A stretch of DNA of 62,314 nucleotides, filler included. It is 9 parts of 9 records of this genome, joined end to end, with 100 filler letters (N's around TTAATTAATTAA, not from the genome) between each part and the next. Parts side by side here need not be neighbours in the genome. Positions count along the whole stretch, not along the records: positions 41,830 to 50,575 come from SRR31147125_161563; 8 more parts are not named here. One strand, 5' to 3'. The notes below the pieces were generated by a model. The model was not told the origin of the DNA and searched no databases. It saw only the letters and a list, made by a program, of their open reading frames with translations. A program made the translations under genes and the position numbers. Positions 41,830-50,575 of this stretch are shown here, in pieces. Within the stretch, counting starts at the first letter, position 1; the number at the start of each line of letters is the position of its first letter.

Positions 41830-41831
41830 TT

Positions 41832-44800
41832 TTAAGGCAGCGTGGGGTCGTCATCCACAATGGGGTTGAGTACAGGGTCTGCGCCGGCATAGTCTGATCC
41901 ATCACCCATGCTCCATTCGAACCAGGAGCTGTCGAAGTTGGAAATGTTTTCATAGCCCATCATGTACCCGTAGAACCAGGCCAGACTGGATCGCCAGGCC
42001 GTGCCGCAGTAAAAGCTCAGGTGCTTGTCGGACGTGATGCCAGCCGCAGTCCAGGTGGCTTCGATGGTGGCCGGCGACTTGAGCGTGCCATCTTCATTCT
42101 CAAAGTCGTCGGTGCCCCAAACCGCATCGGGAATGCGCCCATTGGTGGGGATATAGCTGTAGGGTTCGCTGGCTCCGATATACTCATCATAGGTGCGGAT
42201 ATCAACCAATAGGGCATCGCTCACCGTTCCGTCAACCACTTCCCGCACATAAGGGATGTCGACCTTGTACTCCGGATGCAGGGCGGTGGGGGTTCCAAAA
42301 TCGGTGACCGGCGCCCGTTCCGTGGTTTCGGCAGATTCCGTGTAACCGGCATCTGTCCAGGCATCGTAGCCACCTTCCATAAAGCGCACATCCTCGACGC
42401 CGGCATAGCACAGGGCCCACAGCACACGAGCCGCTGCCGATGCATTCTCAGCGTAGAGCACCACCGTGGTGTCCGTATCGATGCCCATGGTGGCAAAGGC
42501 CGGCAACAGATATTGATCCGGATAGATATTCCACCAGTTGCGGGGCAGGGCGTCGTCCGGTCCGAGCCCCTTGGCCGCATCCGCTTCCTCGGTGGTGCTG
42601 CGGTCCCAACAGGCGGGGTCGCCGGCATCCACCGGCCAGCTGTTGCGCGCGTTAAAGCAGTCATACTCGATTTCATCGGTGTTGATATGGATGGCGCCGG
42701 GAATATGGCCGTCGTTGAATGCGTCACCGGCCTCCCCCCAAGAAACATGGGCGATCACGTACGGGGCACCGAAATTATCGTTTTCCAGAAGCACTTCGCT
42801 GACCCAGCGGGCGTCCACGATCCGGTCCACATGGGGATAGTCGTTTGCATCCCATTCAGGATGGACACCGTTTCCGACCAGCCGCCCGGAGGGATCCTGT
42901 CTCCATCCATCCGTGGTTCCGGGAATGTCAGGATCGGCGGTGTAGCCGGCGTCTTCGATGTAGGTGGTGCTCCAGCCTTCCCAGCCGTCCGAGTAGTTGC
43001 GCGTGTTTTCAAAGCCCATCAAATAGGCGTACAATGTACTCAGGCTGGATCGGTAGCCACTGCCGCAGTAAAAGATCACTGATTTGTCGAAGTCGTCACC
43101 GGCAGCGTTGAGATCAAGGCCCGCTTGCCGCCAAAGATCGCGCACGGCGGTATGCGGCTTGAGCGTTCCGTCGGCATCCAGGTAGTCCAGATCCGGGCTG
43201 TCGGCATTGAAGGCATGGACGGCGCCGGGAAGACGACCTTTGTTGGCCACGTATCCGTAGCCGCTGACTTCTCCGGTGAATTCCTCGTAGGTACGCACAT
43301 CGGCCAGCAGCGTGTCCGCTGAGTCGATATGTGTGGCCACATAGTCGGTGGTGGCGACAAGATCGGGTTGAACCGTACCGTCATAGGAGACCGCGACCGG
43401 TTCATTGACCGTTGTCTCTGCATCATACCCGGCCGCCTGCCAGGCAGCGAATCCGCCATTTAACACCCGGACATCTATGACGCCGGCATATTTTAGAATC
43501 CACCACAGCCGGGCGGCGAAAATCGGACCGTTGCTGTAGACGATCACGGTGGTGTCGGCGGTAATTCCCATGCTGCCCACGGCCTCGAGCAATTCGTCAT
43601 CCGGCAGCATGAACCAGCGCGGAAATCCGTTCTCGTAGGTATCGGAGTTGGAATGAATCGCGCCGGGAATGTGGCCGTCCAGATAGGAGCGGTCTGCCCA
43701 GCCGTTTTCCATATCCTCGAAGCTACCCCACTGGGTCTCGAAAATAAGGTAAGGGTGCTCCCGGTCGTAAGCGTACTCGGCCGGTGCCGCGGATGTGCTG
43801 TCGTCGGCGTGATAGTCGATCAGGGCCTTGACCCAGGCCGGATAGACCAGGTCGGCATAGCTATCGAGCGCCTGCATGGGATAGCTTGCCGAATCAGCCG
43901 CGGCCCAATCCCAGATCGACGCATCATAGTTGGCCACATTGTCGAGCCCCATCAACCGTCCTAAAAAGTAGAAAAACCGCTGCGCACGCCGGCGGTACAA
44001 TAAGCGACCACCGTTTTGCCGGCGGTGATGCCGCTATCGTCGAATAGCGCCTTCAGATCCGCGTAGCTGAGAATCGATTTGTCCGTATTGAAGTAATTGG
44101 CGTAGGGGAGCTGCACGGCACCGGGAATATGCCCGCCGCGCGCCTCCTCGTAGAGAATCCAGCCGTTAAACTCCTCGTCCGTTCGGGTATCCACAATGAC
44201 GAAGTCGTCGTCCGCAAGTCGGCTTTGGATGTCGCTCTTGTCCATCACCACGCTGGTGTCGGGCTCGGCACTGAAAACCGATGCGGGCAGGGTGCGGGCT
44301 GTCGTTTGGCTGGCCAGGCCCTGATCCGCCCAGTGATCCCAGCCGCCGTTGAGAATCTGAACCTGGGTGCAGCCCAGGTATTCGAGCATCCAGAACAGGC
44401 GACCGGCCGATCCCCAGCTGTCGACGGTATCGTCATAGAGGACAATCCAGGACTCGCGGGTCAACCCTAAAGCGCCGAGCTGGCTTTCCAGGTCGGCCAC
44501 GGATTTGAGCGTCGCTTTCTGGGGGGATCATTCCAGAGCACGAAGTCTGTCCATTGGGCATTGATCGCGCCAGGAATGTGCCCGGCGGCGTAAGCCTCGG
44601 CAGACCGGGTGTCGATGATAATCGCATCGGTGGTGACGGAGGCGCTCACGCTGCCGGACGCATGGGGTACGAGCAGACCGTCGGCCGTAGCCAGCAGCCC
44701 GGCATTGGGAAAAAGGGTAATGTCGCCGGTAAGCGAATCTTCTACGGTGACCTCCTCGCCGGTCGATGTGTCGTCGTCGGTGTCATTTTTCGTGCTGCTG

Positions 44801-44874
44801 GAACTGCCGCATCCGGCCAGGTGGAATAGGGCGCTTAAAATCAGGACCATCATCAGTATGCGCAGGTGTTTCAT
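41832..44874 (-). CDS. six-rhodanese-domain sulfurtransferase lipoprotein (~1014 aa after repairing two homopolymer frameshifts)
   Basis: Lipobox LAGC. ORFs 44467-44874, 43961-44500 and 41832-44000 join by +1 base at G6 44521-44526 and at A5 43972-43976. Three active loops: CTAGVR, CGSGYR and CGTAWR. Confidence 0.88.
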
Positions 44875-44908
44875 CTTCCGTGATTCCTTTCATCGTGAGA
44901 ATATAACA

Positions 44909-44995
44909 AGTGCCCATCCAGAAATGGCGGCTCTCGCCCAATACCGGCGTTGGGCCTCGAACTGAGGCAAGATTCACCCTTTCTGGCAGACACTA
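44909..44995. repeat. short element with imperfect terminal inverted repeats (MITE/REP-like)
   Basis: AGTGCCCATCCAGAAA...TTTCTGGCAGACACT termini enclosing hairpins GCCCAA..TTGGGC and CCTC..GAGG. Confidence 0.35.
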
Positions 44996-45021
44996 ACAAA
45001 CTTGTGATGCCACGATCGCCA

Positions 45022-45924
45022 TCAGCGGGGGTCGATAGCCCCTGAGCGCTCCCAGGCTTCTGTGCCGCCTTCGTAATTTCTTGCCGTCGATGCCCGGTAG
45101 AGCTGATCGATGACCCAGGCATAGGCCGATCGAACGCCGCCCGTGCAGTAGAAAATCAGCTCGTCGGCGACCTTGATGTTTCGTTTGCCGAGCAATCGGT
45201 TATAGGCCGCCGCATCGATGGGGTGTCGATCCTTTCCCTCATAAAGCGTTGTCCATGGCAGGTGGACCGCCCCTGGGAGATGGCCGGTGAACCATTCCAG
45301 GGTGGAGCGGGTGTCGATCAGAACCTGGTTGCGGCCAAGGCTGGCCACCTGCCGGGTCGCAATGGTCACTTCATCGCGAAGCCGGACCTGATAAATTGCT
45401 CGGGGACGATGCGGGCGATCGTCCGTGGCCACAATCGCCAGATTGGCCCGCTGCCAGGCCTGCACGCCCCCGTCCAAAAGGCGAATCGGTCCCTTATGGC
45501 CCAGCCAGACGAGCGCCCAGCAGTTCCATCCCTCGCCCCCCCAGCTGGTGTCGGCATCGCCATAGACCAGGATCGGAGTTAGTTCATCGATGCCCATTTC
45601 CCCCAACGCCCCAGCCAGTTCGTCTGCCGGCCGGATTCGGTAAGGTATCTTTTGGTCGTCGATTTTGGTATAGTCCTCCCAGGAAAATGACACAGCGCCC
45701 GGCAGGTGAGAATTTTGGTACGCCGCAGGTGGACGCGCGTCCAGAATCACCCATTGATCTTTCTGGGCAGCCAGGGAACTCACATCCATCAACTCCAGGT
45801 CATAGGCGAAACCTTCCATGCCCACGGCGGCGACAATCAGCCATCCGGTCAGTGCGCCAATCAAGCGGGCGATGCGTCTGTTGTCGAATCCTCGGGTGGT
45901 TCGATGGGCACTTGCCGCCATCAT
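45022..45924 (-). CDS. exported two-domain rhodanese/sulfurtransferase
   Basis: GGAG RBS and signal-like N-terminus; LDAR...HLPGA, LDGG, IDTR...GHLPGA, FYCTGGVRS and NYEGG. Confidence 0.9.
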   Translation of the reverse strand: MMAASAHRTTRGFDNRRIARLIGALTGWLIVAAVGMEGFAYDLELMDVSSLAAQKDQWVILDARPPAAYQNSHLPGAVSFSWEDYTKIDDQKIPYRIRPADELAGALGEMGIDELTPILVYGDADTSWGGEGWNCWALVWLGHKGPIRLLDGGVQAWQRANLAIVATDDRPHRPRAIYQVRLRDEVTIATRQVASLGRNQVLIDTRSTLEWFTGHLPGAVHLPWTTLYEGKDRHPIDAAAYNRLLGKRNIKVADELIFYCTGGVRSAYAWVIDQLYRASTARNYEGGTEAWERSGAIDPR

Positions 45925-47233
45925 TGTCTGCTCCTATCTGCTTCTCGCTCTCCAGAACGATCTGCGTTTGGCCATTCCGCTATTGATTGCCGTCACCGCG
46001 ATAGTCACACTCGTGTTGGCAATTTGCCTGTATTTCTCGGAAACGGACCGGTGGTGTTTTACTCCGCGCCAGGTTATCGGGGTCGCCATCGTCATACGTG
46101 CCATGTTCGTGTTCAGACCGCCGGAGTTGTCTGATGATATCTTCCGCTATCTGTGGGACGGCTTGACGCTCCTTGGCGGCCACAACCCATACGCCCTGGC
46201 GCCGATTGCTGCCGGCCCCCATGACGGCCTGAGCGCCGGATTGCTCGCCCTGGTCAATCACAGCCACCTGACCACCATTTATCCGCCTGCCGCACAACTT
46301 GTCTTTGCCCTTGGCGCATCCACAACCGCCGGTGTGGTGGGCATCAAGCTCATCCTCGTACTCATGGATATTTTCACCTGTTTTCTGCTCATGCACCTCT
46401 TGAATCGTCTGCGAAAGCCATCCTGGCTGGTGGTTTTGTATGCCTGGCACCCGCTGCCGGTGCTGGAAATCGCGGCATCCGGGCATATTGACGCTGCCGG
46501 CATGCTGTTCGCGATCCTGGCTGTTTGTCTTTGCCTGCCCCATTTGCCGCAAGATGGTCCACCCACAGGCCGTTTGCGTCAGTACCGGCTGGTTTTGTCC
46601 GGCCTGATGTTCTCAGTGGCCGTATTGACCAAATTGTTCCCCTTGGTATTCTTGCCCGGCCTCTTGATCATGGCCGGACGGTCCAGCGGGAAGTATTTTG
46701 GGCTGGGCATTGTCGCCGGCGCATTTCTTCTGTTGATGCCGTTTTGCCCGGATATCCGGCATGCATGGACCACACTGTCCCTGTACGCCCGAACCTGGGA
46801 ATTTTCCGGGCTTGTCTACCGGTTGCTGGCCGTAACACCACTGGGAGGCATTTGGACGCGCTGGCTGCTTGGGCTTTTGTATGCAGTGGTCATGCTCATC
46901 AGCTATCGATCTGCCGGGGGCTGGCATGCGTCCCCAGCGGATTTGCTGTGCGTTTTTTATCGCCTGTCTCTGGCTTTTCTTTTACTGACGCCTACCTTGC
47001 ATCCCTGGTATGCGCTTTACCTGGTGCTCTTGGTGCCGTTTTCGGCAGGTCCTGCCGGCTTGGTTCTTTCCTGGGCCGTTTTTCTCGCCTATCGCATATT
47101 GATTGCCTCGACCGTGCTGGGCGTCTGGGCAGAGGACGATCGAAGCGCACTGATGATTTTTGCAGCGCCGGTGGCGGCCGGGTTTCTATCGCGCCTTGCG
47201 CGTTACCACCCATCCGCGTCAGCCACCGGATAA
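45872..47233 (+). CDS. GT-C fold membrane glycosyltransferase (GT87/DUF2029-like)
   Basis: LSDDIFRYLWDG....G.NPY, TIYPP.AQ, YAWHPL...E....GHID and PTLHPWY; about 10 TM helices. Start at 45818 or 45872. Confidence 0.85.
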   Translation: MRLLSNPRVVRWALAAIIVCSYLLLALQNDLRLAIPLLIAVTAIVTLVLAICLYFSETDRWCFTPRQVIGVAIVIRAMFVFRPPELSDDIFRYLWDGLTLLGGHNPYALAPIAAGPHDGLSAGLLALVNHSHLTTIYPPAAQLVFALGASTTAGVVGIKLILVLMDIFTCFLLMHLLNRLRKPSWLVVLYAWHPLPVLEIAASGHIDAAGMLFAILAVCLCLPHLPQDGPPTGRLRQYRLVLSGLMFSVAVLTKLFPLVFLPGLLIMAGRSSGKYFGLGIVAGAFLLLMPFCPDIRHAWTTLSLYARTWEFSGLVYRLLAVTPLGGIWTRWLLGLLYAVVMLISYRSAGGWHASPADLLCVFYRLSLAFLLLTPTLHPWYALYLVLLVPFSAGPAGLVLSWAVFLAYRILIASTVLGVWAEDDRSALMIFAAPVAAGFLSRLARYHPSASATG

Positions 47234-47956
47234 GCGCTTGCAGGGTGACACGCATCGGTCTGAGCACGTATCGACCGCCTCACGCAGAATAACCCAGAGA
47301 ATTTTAACGCCGGCCCGGATAACGCCTTGAAATGTTCCACTCACCTGAGAACGGCCGGCGACTCTGGGGCGATAGGGCATGGCCACTTCCATGATGCGCC
47401 ACTTGCGCCGCACGGCTCTGACTTGCATCTCAACGGTCCAGCCGTAATCCGGATCCTGCATGCGCAGGTCGACCAGTGTATCCCATCGAATGGCCCGCAT
47501 GGGGCCCAGGTCCTGATAGGGCCAGCCCCAGACCATGCAAATCAAACCGGTTGCCAGCCAGTTACCGAACCGTTGTTGCGGGCTCAAGGCACGCGAAACG
47601 CATGGCATGCGCCGGGCCAGAACAAAGTCTGTGCGGCCGGCGCATAGGGGAGCGATGAATCGATCGAAACGCGACAGATCATCACTGCCATCGGCGTCGG
47701 CAAAGGCAACAATATCAGGCGGGGATTGATTGAGTCGGGATAGGCCCTTAAGACAGGCGCGCCCGTAACCGGGACGCGGTTCCTGGACCACCTCGGCACC
47801 GAATTGCCGGGCAATTCGCGCGGTGGTATCGGAAGAGCCGTTATCGATGACGATCAAGCGGTCGATACAGTCCGGTATTGCGGCAAGCACATGGGGAAGC
47901 GCAGCCGCTTCATTGCGGGCCGGGATGAGCAATGCGATCTGTTGGCGCTGGAACAT
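47219..47956 (-). CDS. GT2 glycosyltransferase (polyprenol-phosphate glycosyltransferase-like)
   Basis: LIPARNE, IDNGSSD, GYGRACL.G, FADADGSD, QRFGNWLAT, DLGPMRAIR, YGWTVEMQ and SQVSGT. Confidence 0.9.
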   Translation of the reverse strand: MFQRQQIALLIPARNEAAALPHVLAAIPDCIDRLIVIDNGSSDTTARIARQFGAEVVQEPRPGYGRACLKGLSRLNQSPPDIVAFADADGSDDLSRFDRFIAPLCAGRTDFVLARRMPCVSRALSPQQRFGNWLATGLICMVWGWPYQDLGPMRAIRWDTLVDLRMQDPDYGWTVEMQVRAVRRKWRIMEVAMPYRPRVAGRSQVSGTFQGVIRAGVKILWVILREAVDTCSDRCVSPCKRLSGG

Positions 47957-48042
47957 GGTTAACCCGCTTTTTTGCAGTCGACTACAAGCCATCTCGAAGA
48001 TGGCTTGTAGTGAAATTGAATGTTTTCAGATGATGCTGACCG

Positions 48043-48888
48043 TCAAGGCTGTAACACAACGGCGATGGTCCAGGTGGCTCCACTGGCTGTGTTCTCACCG
48101 TACAGGGTCGGGGTGCAACCCGCTTCGATGCCCCACCGGTCGTTGATTTTGAAACCGACGGCTACGTCGAGTTTCCCCAGGTCGTAATTCGATGTTGCGG
48201 TCGGGTTGCCCTGGTCGTCGAGGACATCGTCGTCATCGTAAAGACCGGCGGTACCATCCAGCTTTATCCGGCCGTACCATTTTTGCCCGAAATCCGATCC
48301 CAGTTCGATCACGTAGCGGATTTGATCCTTGGCATCCCCTTCACGAAAACGGTAGCCCACCTCGACGTTCGCGTAGCCGGGAAACAGTTTCCATAGCGAT
48401 TGGCCATAGAGCAGACGAATCTCACCGTCATAGCCGCCATCGCCCAATGGTAGCGTTTCGTCGTCATCATAGGCTTCCGGGATCTTGACCAACCCCTGCG
48501 TGGATAATACGCCACCGGCGCGTTGCCAGAGCCTATGCTTGAGACCCAGCTCAATATCGCCGATGCCCCAGGTTTCGTCCTTGCGAAAGTCATCTTCCTT
48601 TGTCAGGTATTTATAATATAGGGATGAAACCAGTGTGGTGTGATCAAAAATACCGTATTCCAGGTAGTATTTGAGATTAATGTCACGGAAGTCGCCATTG
48701 TCGGCCATGGCAGTGGTATCGCCATCCGAATCATAATTTTCATCTGCAGAGAAAACGTTCAACTCAAGGCGGTGATAGCTTTTCCCCTTGTCGAACGTCC
48801 ACGCTCCGGCAAGCACTGTTGCAGCTGAGAAAAATAGTACCGGCAACACTGCCATTACACGCCATACCATTCGTTTGCACACCATCAG
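48043..48888 (-). CDS. putative outer-membrane beta-barrel/transporter-like protein
   Basis: Signal peptide ending LAGAWT; alternating beta strands (YYLEYGI, GIGDIELGLKH, ANVEVGYRFR). Start uncertain. Confidence 0.7.
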   Translation of the reverse strand: MMVCKRMVWRVMAVLPVLFFSAATVLAGAWTFDKGKSYHRLELNVFSADENYDSDGDTTAMADNGDFRDINLKYYLEYGIFDHTTLVSSLYYKYLTKEDDFRKDETWGIGDIELGLKHRLWQRAGGVLSTQGLVKIPEAYDDDETLPLGDGGYDGEIRLLYGQSLWKLFPGYANVEVGYRFREGDAKDQIRYVIELGSDFGQKWYGRIKLDGTAGLYDDDDVLDDQGNPTATSNYDLGKLDVAVGFKINDRWGIEAGCTPTLYGENTASGATWTIAVVLQP

Positions 48889-49066
48889 AGCTCCAATTCC
48901 ATTTTGGGATCGCACAATTTTCCACCAAGCAAAAGGCAGAATAATTAGTCAATGGGCAATGGTGAAGTCAAATTGATAATTACGATTATAAACACCGGGT
49001 GCATAAAAAAACACAATACAGCTACCGATTGATGAGAAGTTAGCATCGTGGTATAGGCATGCCGCC

Positions 49067-50575
49067 ATGGCTAATGATTTTCTTTATATGTTTTGTATTG
49101 TGCATTTTGCCGCTTTGGTTGGTCTGGCCTGCTATGGTCTTCACCGGCTTTGGCTTTTATGGCACTGGTGGCCGGTGCGTCACCGCAGCGATCCGTTGCC
49201 GCCGGCCATGGCCTCATCCGATTCGCCCAGGGTGACCCTGCAGCTGCCGTTTTATAATGAGCGCTTCGTCGCCGCGCGGCTGATCGATGCCGCAGCCCGG
49301 ATTCGTTGGCCCGGTGAGAAGCTTGAAATTCAGGTTCTCGACGATTCGAACGACGATACCGTTGACATTATCGACCAACGGGTGGCTTTTGGAAACGCAC
49401 AGGGGTTACGATTAACGTCTTTCGTCGGTGCCATCGCGATGCATACAAAGCCGGCGCCCTGGCGCATGGTCTGGCCTCCGCCAGTGGTGCGTTGATCGCC
49501 GTTTTCGATGCTGACTTTCTACCGGCTGAGGATTTTCTGGAACGCACCGTACCGTATTTCAGTGATCCGCGTATCGGCATGGTGCAGGCGCGCTGGTGCT
49601 TTCTCAATCCCGATCAGTCCTGGCTGACCCGGATACAGGTATTACTGTTGGGCCCGCATTTTTCCATCGAACATCGTGTCCGGCACCTTCGCCGCCTGTT
49701 TTTCAATTTTAATGGCACGGCTGGTATATGGCGCCGTCAGGCCATTGTCTCCGCCGGCGGTTGGCAGGCCGATACAGTCACCGAGGACCTGGATTTGAGC
49801 TATCGGGCCCAACTGGCCGGCTGGCGCTTTGTGTATCTGAACGACTACGCGGTCCCATCGGAGCTGCCGGCCACGCTCGGTGATTTTCGGCGTCAACAAC
49901 ATCGCTGGGCCAAGGGGTCGATCCAGACCGCGCGTAAAATTCTGCCGCGACTGCTTGGCGCGACGTTGCCGCTTGAGGTTAAAGCCGAGGCCATCTTTCA
50001 TCTGATGGCCAATGTCGGCTGGCTTTTGGGTGCCCTGGTGACATTGACCCTTTACCCGACAATTCTTTTACGCGCCGGCATCGGGCCTTACCAGATGCTG
50101 CGCCTTGACCTGCCGCTCTTTTTCGGGGCAACCCTGGCGATGATGGCCTATTTTTTCTTTACACCATCAACCGTGGCCGCCGGCGGGCCCTGACCAGCCT
50201 GCTGGTATTGCCCATTTTGACGATCGGCCTGGCGCCGAGCCTGGCCCTGGCGGTCGTCCAGGGGTGTTTTCAAAGCGGCGGGGTGTTCGAACGCACTCCC
50301 AAGTACGGTATAGAGGGGGGACAGCGGTTGTCGGCGATTTCGTTGTCCAACGGTCACGGTAGCACCGGTTATCTGATGTTGAATTTGATGGGAATGGTTT
50401 ACATCCTATTGCCGTTGGTTTTTGCATGGCAGCACCGCACCTGGTTGGCCGTTCCGCTGCTGGTGCTGTTTCCTTTGGGATTTGCGTTGGTGTTTGTGCA
50501 GGAATGCCGTGAATGGTGGCGCGACCGTAAAACCAAGACTCATCTGAAAACCACTGCCGACAAACGCCATGGCTA
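49067..50575 (+). CDS. cellulose-synthase-like GT2 membrane glycosyltransferase, with two homopolymer frameshifts
   Basis: VTLQLPFYNE, QVLDDS.D, (repaired) YKAGAL, FDADF, FNGTAG, TEDLDL, QQHRWAKG (QxxRW) and FERTPK. +1 T needed at 49387-49390 and at ~50151-50160. Confidence 0.9.

Follow-up and report, generated by a model that had tools for sequence, protein, structure and literature searches.

Three-component systems that glycosylate by way of a lipid carrier are known in GtrA/GtrB/GtrC, CsbB/GtcA/YfhO and ArnC/ArnT. Rhodanese-family sulfurtransferases of the periplasm are represented by YnjE of Escherichia coli, whose gene is flanked by ydjX and ydjZ, and the arsenosugar neighbourhood catalogued in NCBIfam (TIGR04167, TIGR04282, TIGR04283, TIGR04169 and ArsM) includes the characterised arsenite methyltransferase ArsM. 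Here we compare with these systems an 8.7-kb contig (positions 41830–50575) of a 62,314-nucleotide stretch of DNA, filler included, hereafter the window, that is filled by six genes: two exported rhodaneses (RhoA and RhoB), a GT-C membrane glycosyltransferase, two glycosyltransferases of family GT2 (GT2D and GT2F) and an outer-membrane β-barrel. In our leading reading, to which we give about an even chance, this contig is part of a larger, conserved envelope cluster of the arsenosugar-type neighbourhood, in which a glycosylation module and a sulfur/selenium relay module would together serve an organoarsenic sugar conjugate. Among the arsenosugar-type families that occur in such clusters, we have seen a demonstrated reaction for the ArsS (TIGR04167) step only, the adenosylation of dimethylarsenite (PMC13598754); ArsS and ArsM aside, the NCBIfam names of these families were given from association.

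The six gene types on the contig, all of which had been named in a first-pass annotation of the window, were each recovered from open reading frames (ORFs), Pfam matches, motifs and a barrel model, and are arranged as follows, with the contig ends falling within RhoA and GT2F:

44874 to 41832, minus strand: RhoA, a six-domain rhodanese lipoprotein (ORFs, lipobox, Pfam rhodanese)
45924 to 45022, minus strand: RhoB, a two-domain exported rhodanese (ORF, hydrophobic N-terminus, Pfam rhodanese)
About 45875 to 47233, plus strand: GT-C, a GT87-like membrane glycosyltransferase (PF09594; start codon uncertain, 45818–45875)
47992 to 47219, minus strand: GT2D, a small GT2 of polyprenol-phosphate type (PF00535)
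48915 to 48043, minus strand: predicted 12-strand outer-membrane β-barrel (signal peptide and structure model)
48916 to 49066, no strand: divergent intergenic region between barrel and GT2F, a presumed promoter region (from gene coordinates only)
49067 to 50575, plus strand, 3′ end off the contig: GT2F, a CesA-like membrane GT2 (PF13632, QQHRW)

Conservation of the gene cluster

Screening a single genome from each species gave 27 loci with a relative of GT-C in several phyla, in metagenome-assembled genomes (MAGs) labelled Geobacteraceae, Desulfuromonadaceae, Nitrospirae, Nitrospinales, Desulfobacterales, Gemmatimonadota, Latescibacterota, Acidobacteriota, Verrucomicrobiae, Brocadiaceae and Bacteroidota. 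Beside GT-C, rhodanese genes were found at 11 of these loci, GT2F at 13, GT2D at 12 and the barrel at seven, as counted with tblastn markers and a simple ORF caller, by which genes may be missed or mislabelled; ten of the 11 rhodanese-bearing loci have a RhoB orthologue, 1.0–2.3 kb from GT-C. We also sampled 401 genomes from the phylum of G001, 25 of which contain GT-C at E ≤ 1e-20. The 26 loci (up to ±9.3 kb) taken from 24 of the GT-C genomes, with G001 (locus L001) excluded, carry rhodaneses in 17 cases, GT2F in 17, GT2D in 18, the barrel in 17 and, in eight cases, a fusion of iron–sulfur (FeS), CCG and VTT domains. RhoB orthologues (E ≤ 1e-70) occur in eight of the 401 genomes and in seven of the eight lie on the GT-C contig, less than 7 kb away (hypergeometric P = 1.2e-8 for co-occurrence, uncorrected for relatedness).

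The rhodanese domains of a genome can be concentrated at this locus: 8 of 14 in G171, a 3.06-Mb genome, and 10 of 17 in G157 fall within 27 kb there, and in G115, which has distant GT-C relatives, none of six is at the locus. At many loci the RhoB gene sits directly next to that of GT-C and diverges from it, and the linkage of the cluster survives many rearrangements of gene order. Rhodaneses recur beside the glycosyltransferases at 11 of 27 and 17 of 26 loci, far above background, and the chance juxtaposition that the first-pass annotation had considered is rejected. One genome has a second copy of the cluster (G247:C112, L095 7406–10324) in which stops or frameshifts have left the barrel, GT2D and GT-C in pieces; RhoB, a pair of RhoA genes and the FeS-CCG-VTT gene appear complete there.

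At L001, from a Geobacteraceae MAG, a RepA-like gene and a phage-type integrase (L001 3–2546) lie about 2 kb from the cluster, which may for this reason be on or near a mobile element there.

Association with arsenosugar-type genes

In relatives, genes of the arsenosugar-type families stand inside the cluster. ArsS scores above its cut-off at L070 (395.8), L071 (366.2) and L083 (384.7); TIGR04282 does so at L070, L074, L075, L078, L080, L081, L082, L083, L090 and L021; and TIGR04283 does so at L070, L075 and L092, with a cut copy at the edge of L004. One or more of the three families passes its cut-off in 11 of the 26 phylum-sample loci and at L021, and seven of the 11 also have rhodaneses. 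For example, L070 has the gene order of the window (barrel, GT2D, GT-C, RhoB, RhoA), followed by GT2F, TIGR04283, ArsS and TIGR04282. The first-pass annotation had stated that the glycosyltransferase trio recurs near clusters of radical S-adenosylmethionine (SAM)/selenodomain (ArsS-type) genes, which holds for these relatives and does not extend to the window contig, where there are none.

Three loci encode in-cluster fusions of about 1000 residues (L074 2700–5792, L075 509–3724, L091 6426–9473) in which a radical SAM domain is combined with an arsenite-methyltransferase-like domain (204–217 bits against a cut-off of 263) and an MbdU-like metal-binding domain. A single gene of L024 (5431–7680) combines GT-C with a GT2 resembling TIGR04283 (156.8 bits against 182), and at L074 (932–2572) GT2D is fused to a NapH-like membrane iron–sulfur protein.

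A search of the relatives' neighbourhoods for DUF547 and VTT/TVP38 proteins, as the first-pass annotation had suggested, found both: VTT/DedA proteins are standalone in L003 and L019, where DUF547 and an extra GT2 also occur, and in L001, L006, L008, L009 and others they form fusions with CCG domains and two 4Fe-4S clusters. The VTT-fused FeS protein resembles NF045663, the ‘dicluster protein near Sec’ (about 215 bits against 530), and PF16949 is another recurrent partner of the cluster. A radical SAM gene behind GT2D in L013 was considered as a candidate ArsS and rejected, as it scores 72.6 bits against 300 and its best match is the Rv1681 family.

ArsS genes also occur away from the cluster, on contigs of G001, G002 and G005 where they are surrounded by cobamide genes, TIGR04169 and a flavoprotein gene. 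Specifically, in a Nitrospinales MAG (G005:C80, L038 12077–12418) the unlinked ArsS sits beside TIGR04169, an arsenosugar-associated peroxidase-like protein, with the cobamide lower-ligand genes CobT, CobS and CbiR nearby, and these three also lie around the ArsS of G002, which is split.

Exported rhodaneses

RhoA and RhoB are rhodanese-family proteins and, on their sequences, predicted sulfurtransferases. RhoA begins with a lipoprotein signal with a lipobox (MKHL...LAGC), behind which comes a linker rich in Ser, Thr and Asp, and contains six Pfam rhodanese domains arranged as three tandem pairs, each pair having one active-site loop of the CX4R type (CTAGVR, CGSGYR and CGTAWR). A six-residue CX4R loop is of the sulfurtransferase type, in contrast to the CX5R loop of phosphatases and arsenate reductases. 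The pieces of RhoA score 30.7, 64 and 187 bits against PF00581, and RhoB scores 108.6 bits (cut-off 22.2); RhoA can be aligned over the full length of an intact 977-residue homologue in L006, and among solved structures it is closest to the sulfurtransferases 6ktv/6h98, at 174 bits, and to YnjE of E. coli, at 160 bits. In RhoB the first domain is without the active-site Cys (GDADTSWGGEGW) and the second has YCTGGVRS, that is, a CTGGVR loop. The RhoB gene is divergent from the neighbouring GT-C gene; orthologues that adjoin GT-C elsewhere are 41–54% identical, and the catalytic Cys loop is retained in 15 of 15 RhoB orthologues whose sequences were read by eye.

Closer assignments were rejected. 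RhoA is not of the YnjE type, which has three domains with one active C-terminal domain, as it has six domains and three Cys loops instead; nor is it ExtH (NF040901; 50.1 bits against a cut-off of 200), and RhoB matches NF045521 (rhoda_near_glyco) only in part, with 37.7 bits against 145.

In G247, two RhoA-like genes (L070 8623 and L095 13010) have a TGA codon in place of the catalytic Cys in their final rhodanese domain, the rhodanese motif carries on in frame past the TGA, and the genome has SelB above its cut-off; the two genes probably encode selenocysteine rhodaneses. A third TGA hit from the motif scan, at L073, was discarded as an out-of-frame, low-complexity artefact.

RhoB has a further neighbour in relatives, a conserved protein of about 179 residues without a family (L001 8630–9166), which adjoins it in L001, L004, L005, L009, L071 and L072 and is absent from the window contig.

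Glycosyltransferases and outer-membrane barrel

GT-C matches PF09594 (GT87) with 30.7 bits against a cut-off of 25; searched by sequence against the PDB, it has no match at E ≤ 1. After removal of 8 of 44 alignment rows (longer than 560 residues, or with a stop), a structure model from 37 sequences reached a predicted local distance difference test (pLDDT) score of 94.3. The best folds were ALG3 (9s6r), PIG-U, PimE (9dm5) and GPI mannosyltransferase I (9wno), then ArnT, with template-modelling (TM) scores of 0.52–0.59 at 12–18% identity for ALG3, PimE and GPI mannosyltransferase I. The ALG3 and GPI mannosyltransferase I entries contain dolichol-phosphate-mannose, and the acceptors there are lipid-linked. 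In the first extracytoplasmic loop of GT-C, D88 does not vary among the 37 aligned sequences and D87 is conserved in at least 90% of them, and these residues are presumably catalytic. On its Pfam match and modelled fold, GT-C is a predicted member of the ALG3/PIG-M/PimE class (GT87-like).

GT2D matches PF00535 with 52 bits, and its best NCBIfam matches are AglJ (90.6 bits, cut-off 325) and dolichyl-phosphate hexose transferase (68.9 bits, cut-off 375, over profile positions 3–206 of 213). It appears most like the polyprenol- or dolichol-phosphate hexose synthases, a similarity at the level of the family. It is not a TIGR04283 protein, scoring 30.9 bits against a cut-off of 182, with true members in relatives at 228–269.

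GT2F matches PF13632 with 84 bits and also passes the Pfam model for GT21; it has a DxD motif, QQHRW (QxxRW) and C-terminal membrane helices, and is 67% identical to an intact 517-residue homologue of L001. Its best solved relative is BcsA (83 bits), with which it shares the GT2 core and QxxRW only; an identity as the cellulose synthase BcsA (TIGR03030) was rejected at 77.3 bits against 699, and no BcsB-like gene was seen.

The barrel has a signal peptide ending ...VLA/GAWT, and the mature N-terminal GAW is invariant across a 20-sequence alignment from which the L088 row was left out for an internal stop. It has no Pfam match at E 0.01 and belongs to no NCBIfam family. The model (pLDDT 87.6) has 12 long strands, and its best fold is the COG4313 channel 4rl8 (TM 0.66–0.74), then FapF; membership of the COG4313/Phenol_MetA_deg family by sequence was rejected given the lack of a Pfam match, the likeness being one of fold only.

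Contig integrity

The window consists of nine contigs chained through N spacers that carry a ttaattaattaa insert and stop codons in all frames, and positions 41830–50575 are exactly one whole contig. Its G+C content is about 59%, and that of the adjoining contigs 42–48%; homologues of ArsS, TIGR04282, TIGR04283, VTT, DUF547 and PF16949 were found on none of the remaining contigs. Across all nine contigs G+C spans 42%–61%, and the bin behind the window may therefore mix organisms.

RhoA and GT2F are each spread over three frames in the window, with two breaks per gene, and all four breaks lie within homopolymers (runs of C, T or G). For comparison we used a 9280-base contig from a public sequencing run (X1, depth 30) that spans the whole stretch, extending 498 bases past RhoA and 32 bases past GT2F; run X1 is possibly the source sample, which makes this an independent assembly and not an independent sample. 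The two contigs differ by two substitutions and four single-base insertions in X1 (at 43971, 44520, 49386 and 50150). With the X1 bases inserted, RhoA becomes one ORF of 1014 residues and GT2F stays open for 503 codons up to the contig end; the RhoA homologue in L006 and the GT2F homologue in L001 are likewise single ORFs. RhoA and GT2F are thus intact genes, and the frame breaks are assembly errors, since the X1 contig has one extra base at each homopolymer; these bases restore both frames and rule out pseudogenes. Other contigs of the same assembly may contain similar homopolymer under-calls and hence false pseudogenes.

Proposed pathway and alternative explanations

In the pathway that we propose, GT2F (CesA/GT21-like) would act at the inner membrane and make either a glycosyl-lipid or a short glycan, GT2D would charge polyprenol phosphate with a hexose-type sugar, and GT-C (ALG3/PimE class) would move this sugar onto a lipid-linked acceptor at the periplasmic face. 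RhoB and RhoA would use their CX4R cysteines to hold a periplasmic persulfide (or perselenide) and, in relatives, may work with the VTT/DedA membrane protein, often fused to an HdrD-like 4Fe-4S/CCG domain; the 12-strand COG4313-like barrel would let a hydrophobic or amphiphilic molecule across the outer membrane. The VTT/DedA protein, which is not in the window, might return or move the lipid carrier, and one report proposes this family as a polyprenyl-phosphate transporter (10.1101/2022.02.03.479048). Together with the ArsS/ArsM-type enzymes of the relatives' clusters, such a pathway would build or modify an S- or Se-bearing organoarsenic sugar conjugate of the envelope; we suggest that its substrate or product is an organoarsenic sugar conjugate because ArsS and ArsM-like enzymes share the cluster in relatives. 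The pathway put forward in the first-pass annotation, for a periplasmic thio-, seleno- or arseno-sugar glycoconjugate, is partly supported: we show the gene content, its intactness and conservation, the association with rhodanese and ArsS-type genes, and the modelled folds, and we infer the product, the sugar donor, the acceptor and the target of the rhodanese sulfur. A more specific version, which we offer as speculative and distinctly unlikely, is that the rhodaneses are a periplasmic sulfur-transfer arm (selenium-dependent in some species) that turns an oxo-arsenosugar lipid conjugate built by the GT2 and GT-C enzymes into its thio form, with the COG4313-like barrel passing the product or a precursor through the outer membrane.

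Several observations weigh against assigning the contig to an arsenosugar-type envelope cluster. GT-C stands alone at seven of the 27 loci, some of them on cut contigs, and the locus counts, coming from related genomes, are not phylogenetically independent. None of the contig's proteins reaches an NCBIfam cut-off, and its functional names are therefore all family-level similarities. ArsS, TIGR04282, TIGR04283, VTT and DUF547 are all absent from contig 41830–50575; in G001, G002 and G005 ArsS is on contigs without a homologue of any window protein, and in G003 and G004 ArsS above cut-off was not found. At five Gemmatimonadota, Latescibacterota and Acidobacteriota loci (L014, L015, L017, L018 and L020) the glycosyltransferase trio is present and both rhodaneses and ArsS-type genes are missing, and in G175:C12 (L096 9587–10868) a VTT-like gene comes after a RhoB orthologue, and none of the set's glycosyltransferases lies within 10 kb of them. 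As the trio and the RhoB–VTT pair can each stand alone, and as decay at L095 has struck the glycosyltransferase side, we regard the cluster as two separable modules. The lone trio, the unlinked ArsS genes and a window contig without an arsenic gene could also be read as signs of a common type of envelope pathway, for a glycolipid or glycan, that involves no arsenic chemistry; the trio and the barrel would then make a membrane glycolipid, which rhodaneses and ArsS-type genes would adjoin only through co-regulation in anoxic, sulfidic settings or through history. Against such a pathway stand the ArsS, TIGR04282 or TIGR04283 genes within the cluster at 11 of 26 loci and L021, the fusion of GT-C to a TIGR04283-like protein in L024, the radical SAM–ArsM fusions at three loci and a linkage preserved across many order rearrangements, and we consider it possible, if on balance unlikely.

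The other alternatives concern the acceptor, the element and the integrity of the locus. Pmt-type GT-Cs O-glycosylate secreted proteins, and GT2D and GT-C could in the same way O-glycosylate RhoA and RhoB in the periplasm, for instance on the Ser/Thr-rich linker of RhoA. The S/T/D-rich stretch behind the lipobox and the direct, divergent placement of RhoB next to GT-C at many loci would suit this idea; against it, the nearest folds (ALG3, PimE, GPI mannosyltransferase I) use lipid-linked acceptors, the trio is present without any rhodanese in several phyla, and the rhodanese genes of L095 are whole despite the broken glycosyltransferase genes, so that we give it a very slender chance. It is improbable, too, that the element is selenium and not arsenic, with the rhodaneses passing Se and the ArsS-like radical SAM enzymes and glycosyltransferases of relatives making a selenosugar-type conjugate. 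The probable replacement of the catalytic Cys by selenocysteine in two RhoA-like genes, the likeness of the VTT-fused FeS protein to NF045663 and a weak similarity to ExtH of a selenite/tellurite operon all point that way, but selenocysteine in an enzyme does not make selenium its substrate, ArsM-like methyltransferase domains are fused within the clusters, and an arsenic substrate has been demonstrated for ArsS (PMC13598754). Finally, four frame breaks in the window and a short contig from a bin of mixed G+C might be taken to mean that unrelated genes lie together by chance or that the split genes are pseudogenes; as the breaks are homopolymer under-calls, absent from the X1 contig at depth 30, and the linkage recurs in dozens of loci, we give this almost no credence.

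Implications

The cluster unites a complete predicted lipid-carrier glycosylation module, a putative outer-membrane channel and exported, predicted sulfurtransferases, with a link to arsenic genes in relatives. In the library searched, no paper has both ‘rhodanese’ and ‘arsenosugar’, and the cluster was not described in anything returned by searches on the ArsS-type families, on DUF547 and on ArsS together with glycosyltransferase. Its carriers are anaerobes of sediments and soils, and it supplies candidates that can be deleted for the late organoarsenic steps and for the addition of sulfur where arsenic meets sulfide. The hypothesis may be testable in culture, since cultured members of Geotalea, Geobacter, Oryzomonas and Geomonas have relatives of GT2F at 60–63% identity. 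If the conversion to thio forms were true, thio-organoarsenicals and bacterial arsenosugar lipids would have their first enzymatic route.

Comparison with known systems

As in the three-component lipid-carrier systems, the small GT2 of the window would charge polyprenol phosphate and GT-C would transfer the sugar outside the cytoplasm, with a VTT/DedA protein added in the window's relatives. Unlike these systems, the window cluster is without a GtrA-type flippase, its GT-C is predicted to be of the ALG3/PimE class and not GtrC, YfhO or ArnT, and it adds a CesA-like GT2, a barrel and rhodaneses. With PimE, ALG3 and GPI mannosyltransferase I the window GT-C has in common the GT87 Pfam match, the modelled GT-C fold and conserved acidic residues in the first loop; it differs in sequence, as the low identity and the lack of a PDB match show. 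Similarly, the barrel model and the COG4313 channel of Pseudomonas putida (PDB 4rl8) are both 12-strand barrels of similar size, whereas the window barrel is only 13–14% identical and has no Pfam match.

The rhodaneses recall ExtH (NF040901) and NF045521, which are also exported rhodanese proteins encoded beside envelope genes, with scores far under both cut-offs. RhoA resembles the YnjE-type periplasmic sulfurtransferases, differing in its six domains where YnjE has three. The pairing of rhodaneses with VTT/TVP38 proteins in relatives has a parallel in the E. coli ydjXYZ-ynjABCD-ynjE-ynjF genes; that operon has no GT-C or GT2 trio, and the window in turn has no ABC importer. None of the families of the NCBIfam arsenosugar neighbourhood is in the window, and the named set is without exported rhodaneses or a barrel; in relatives, however, homologues of every window gene are clustered with ArsS, TIGR04282 and TIGR04283 (L070, L071, L075, L083 and others).

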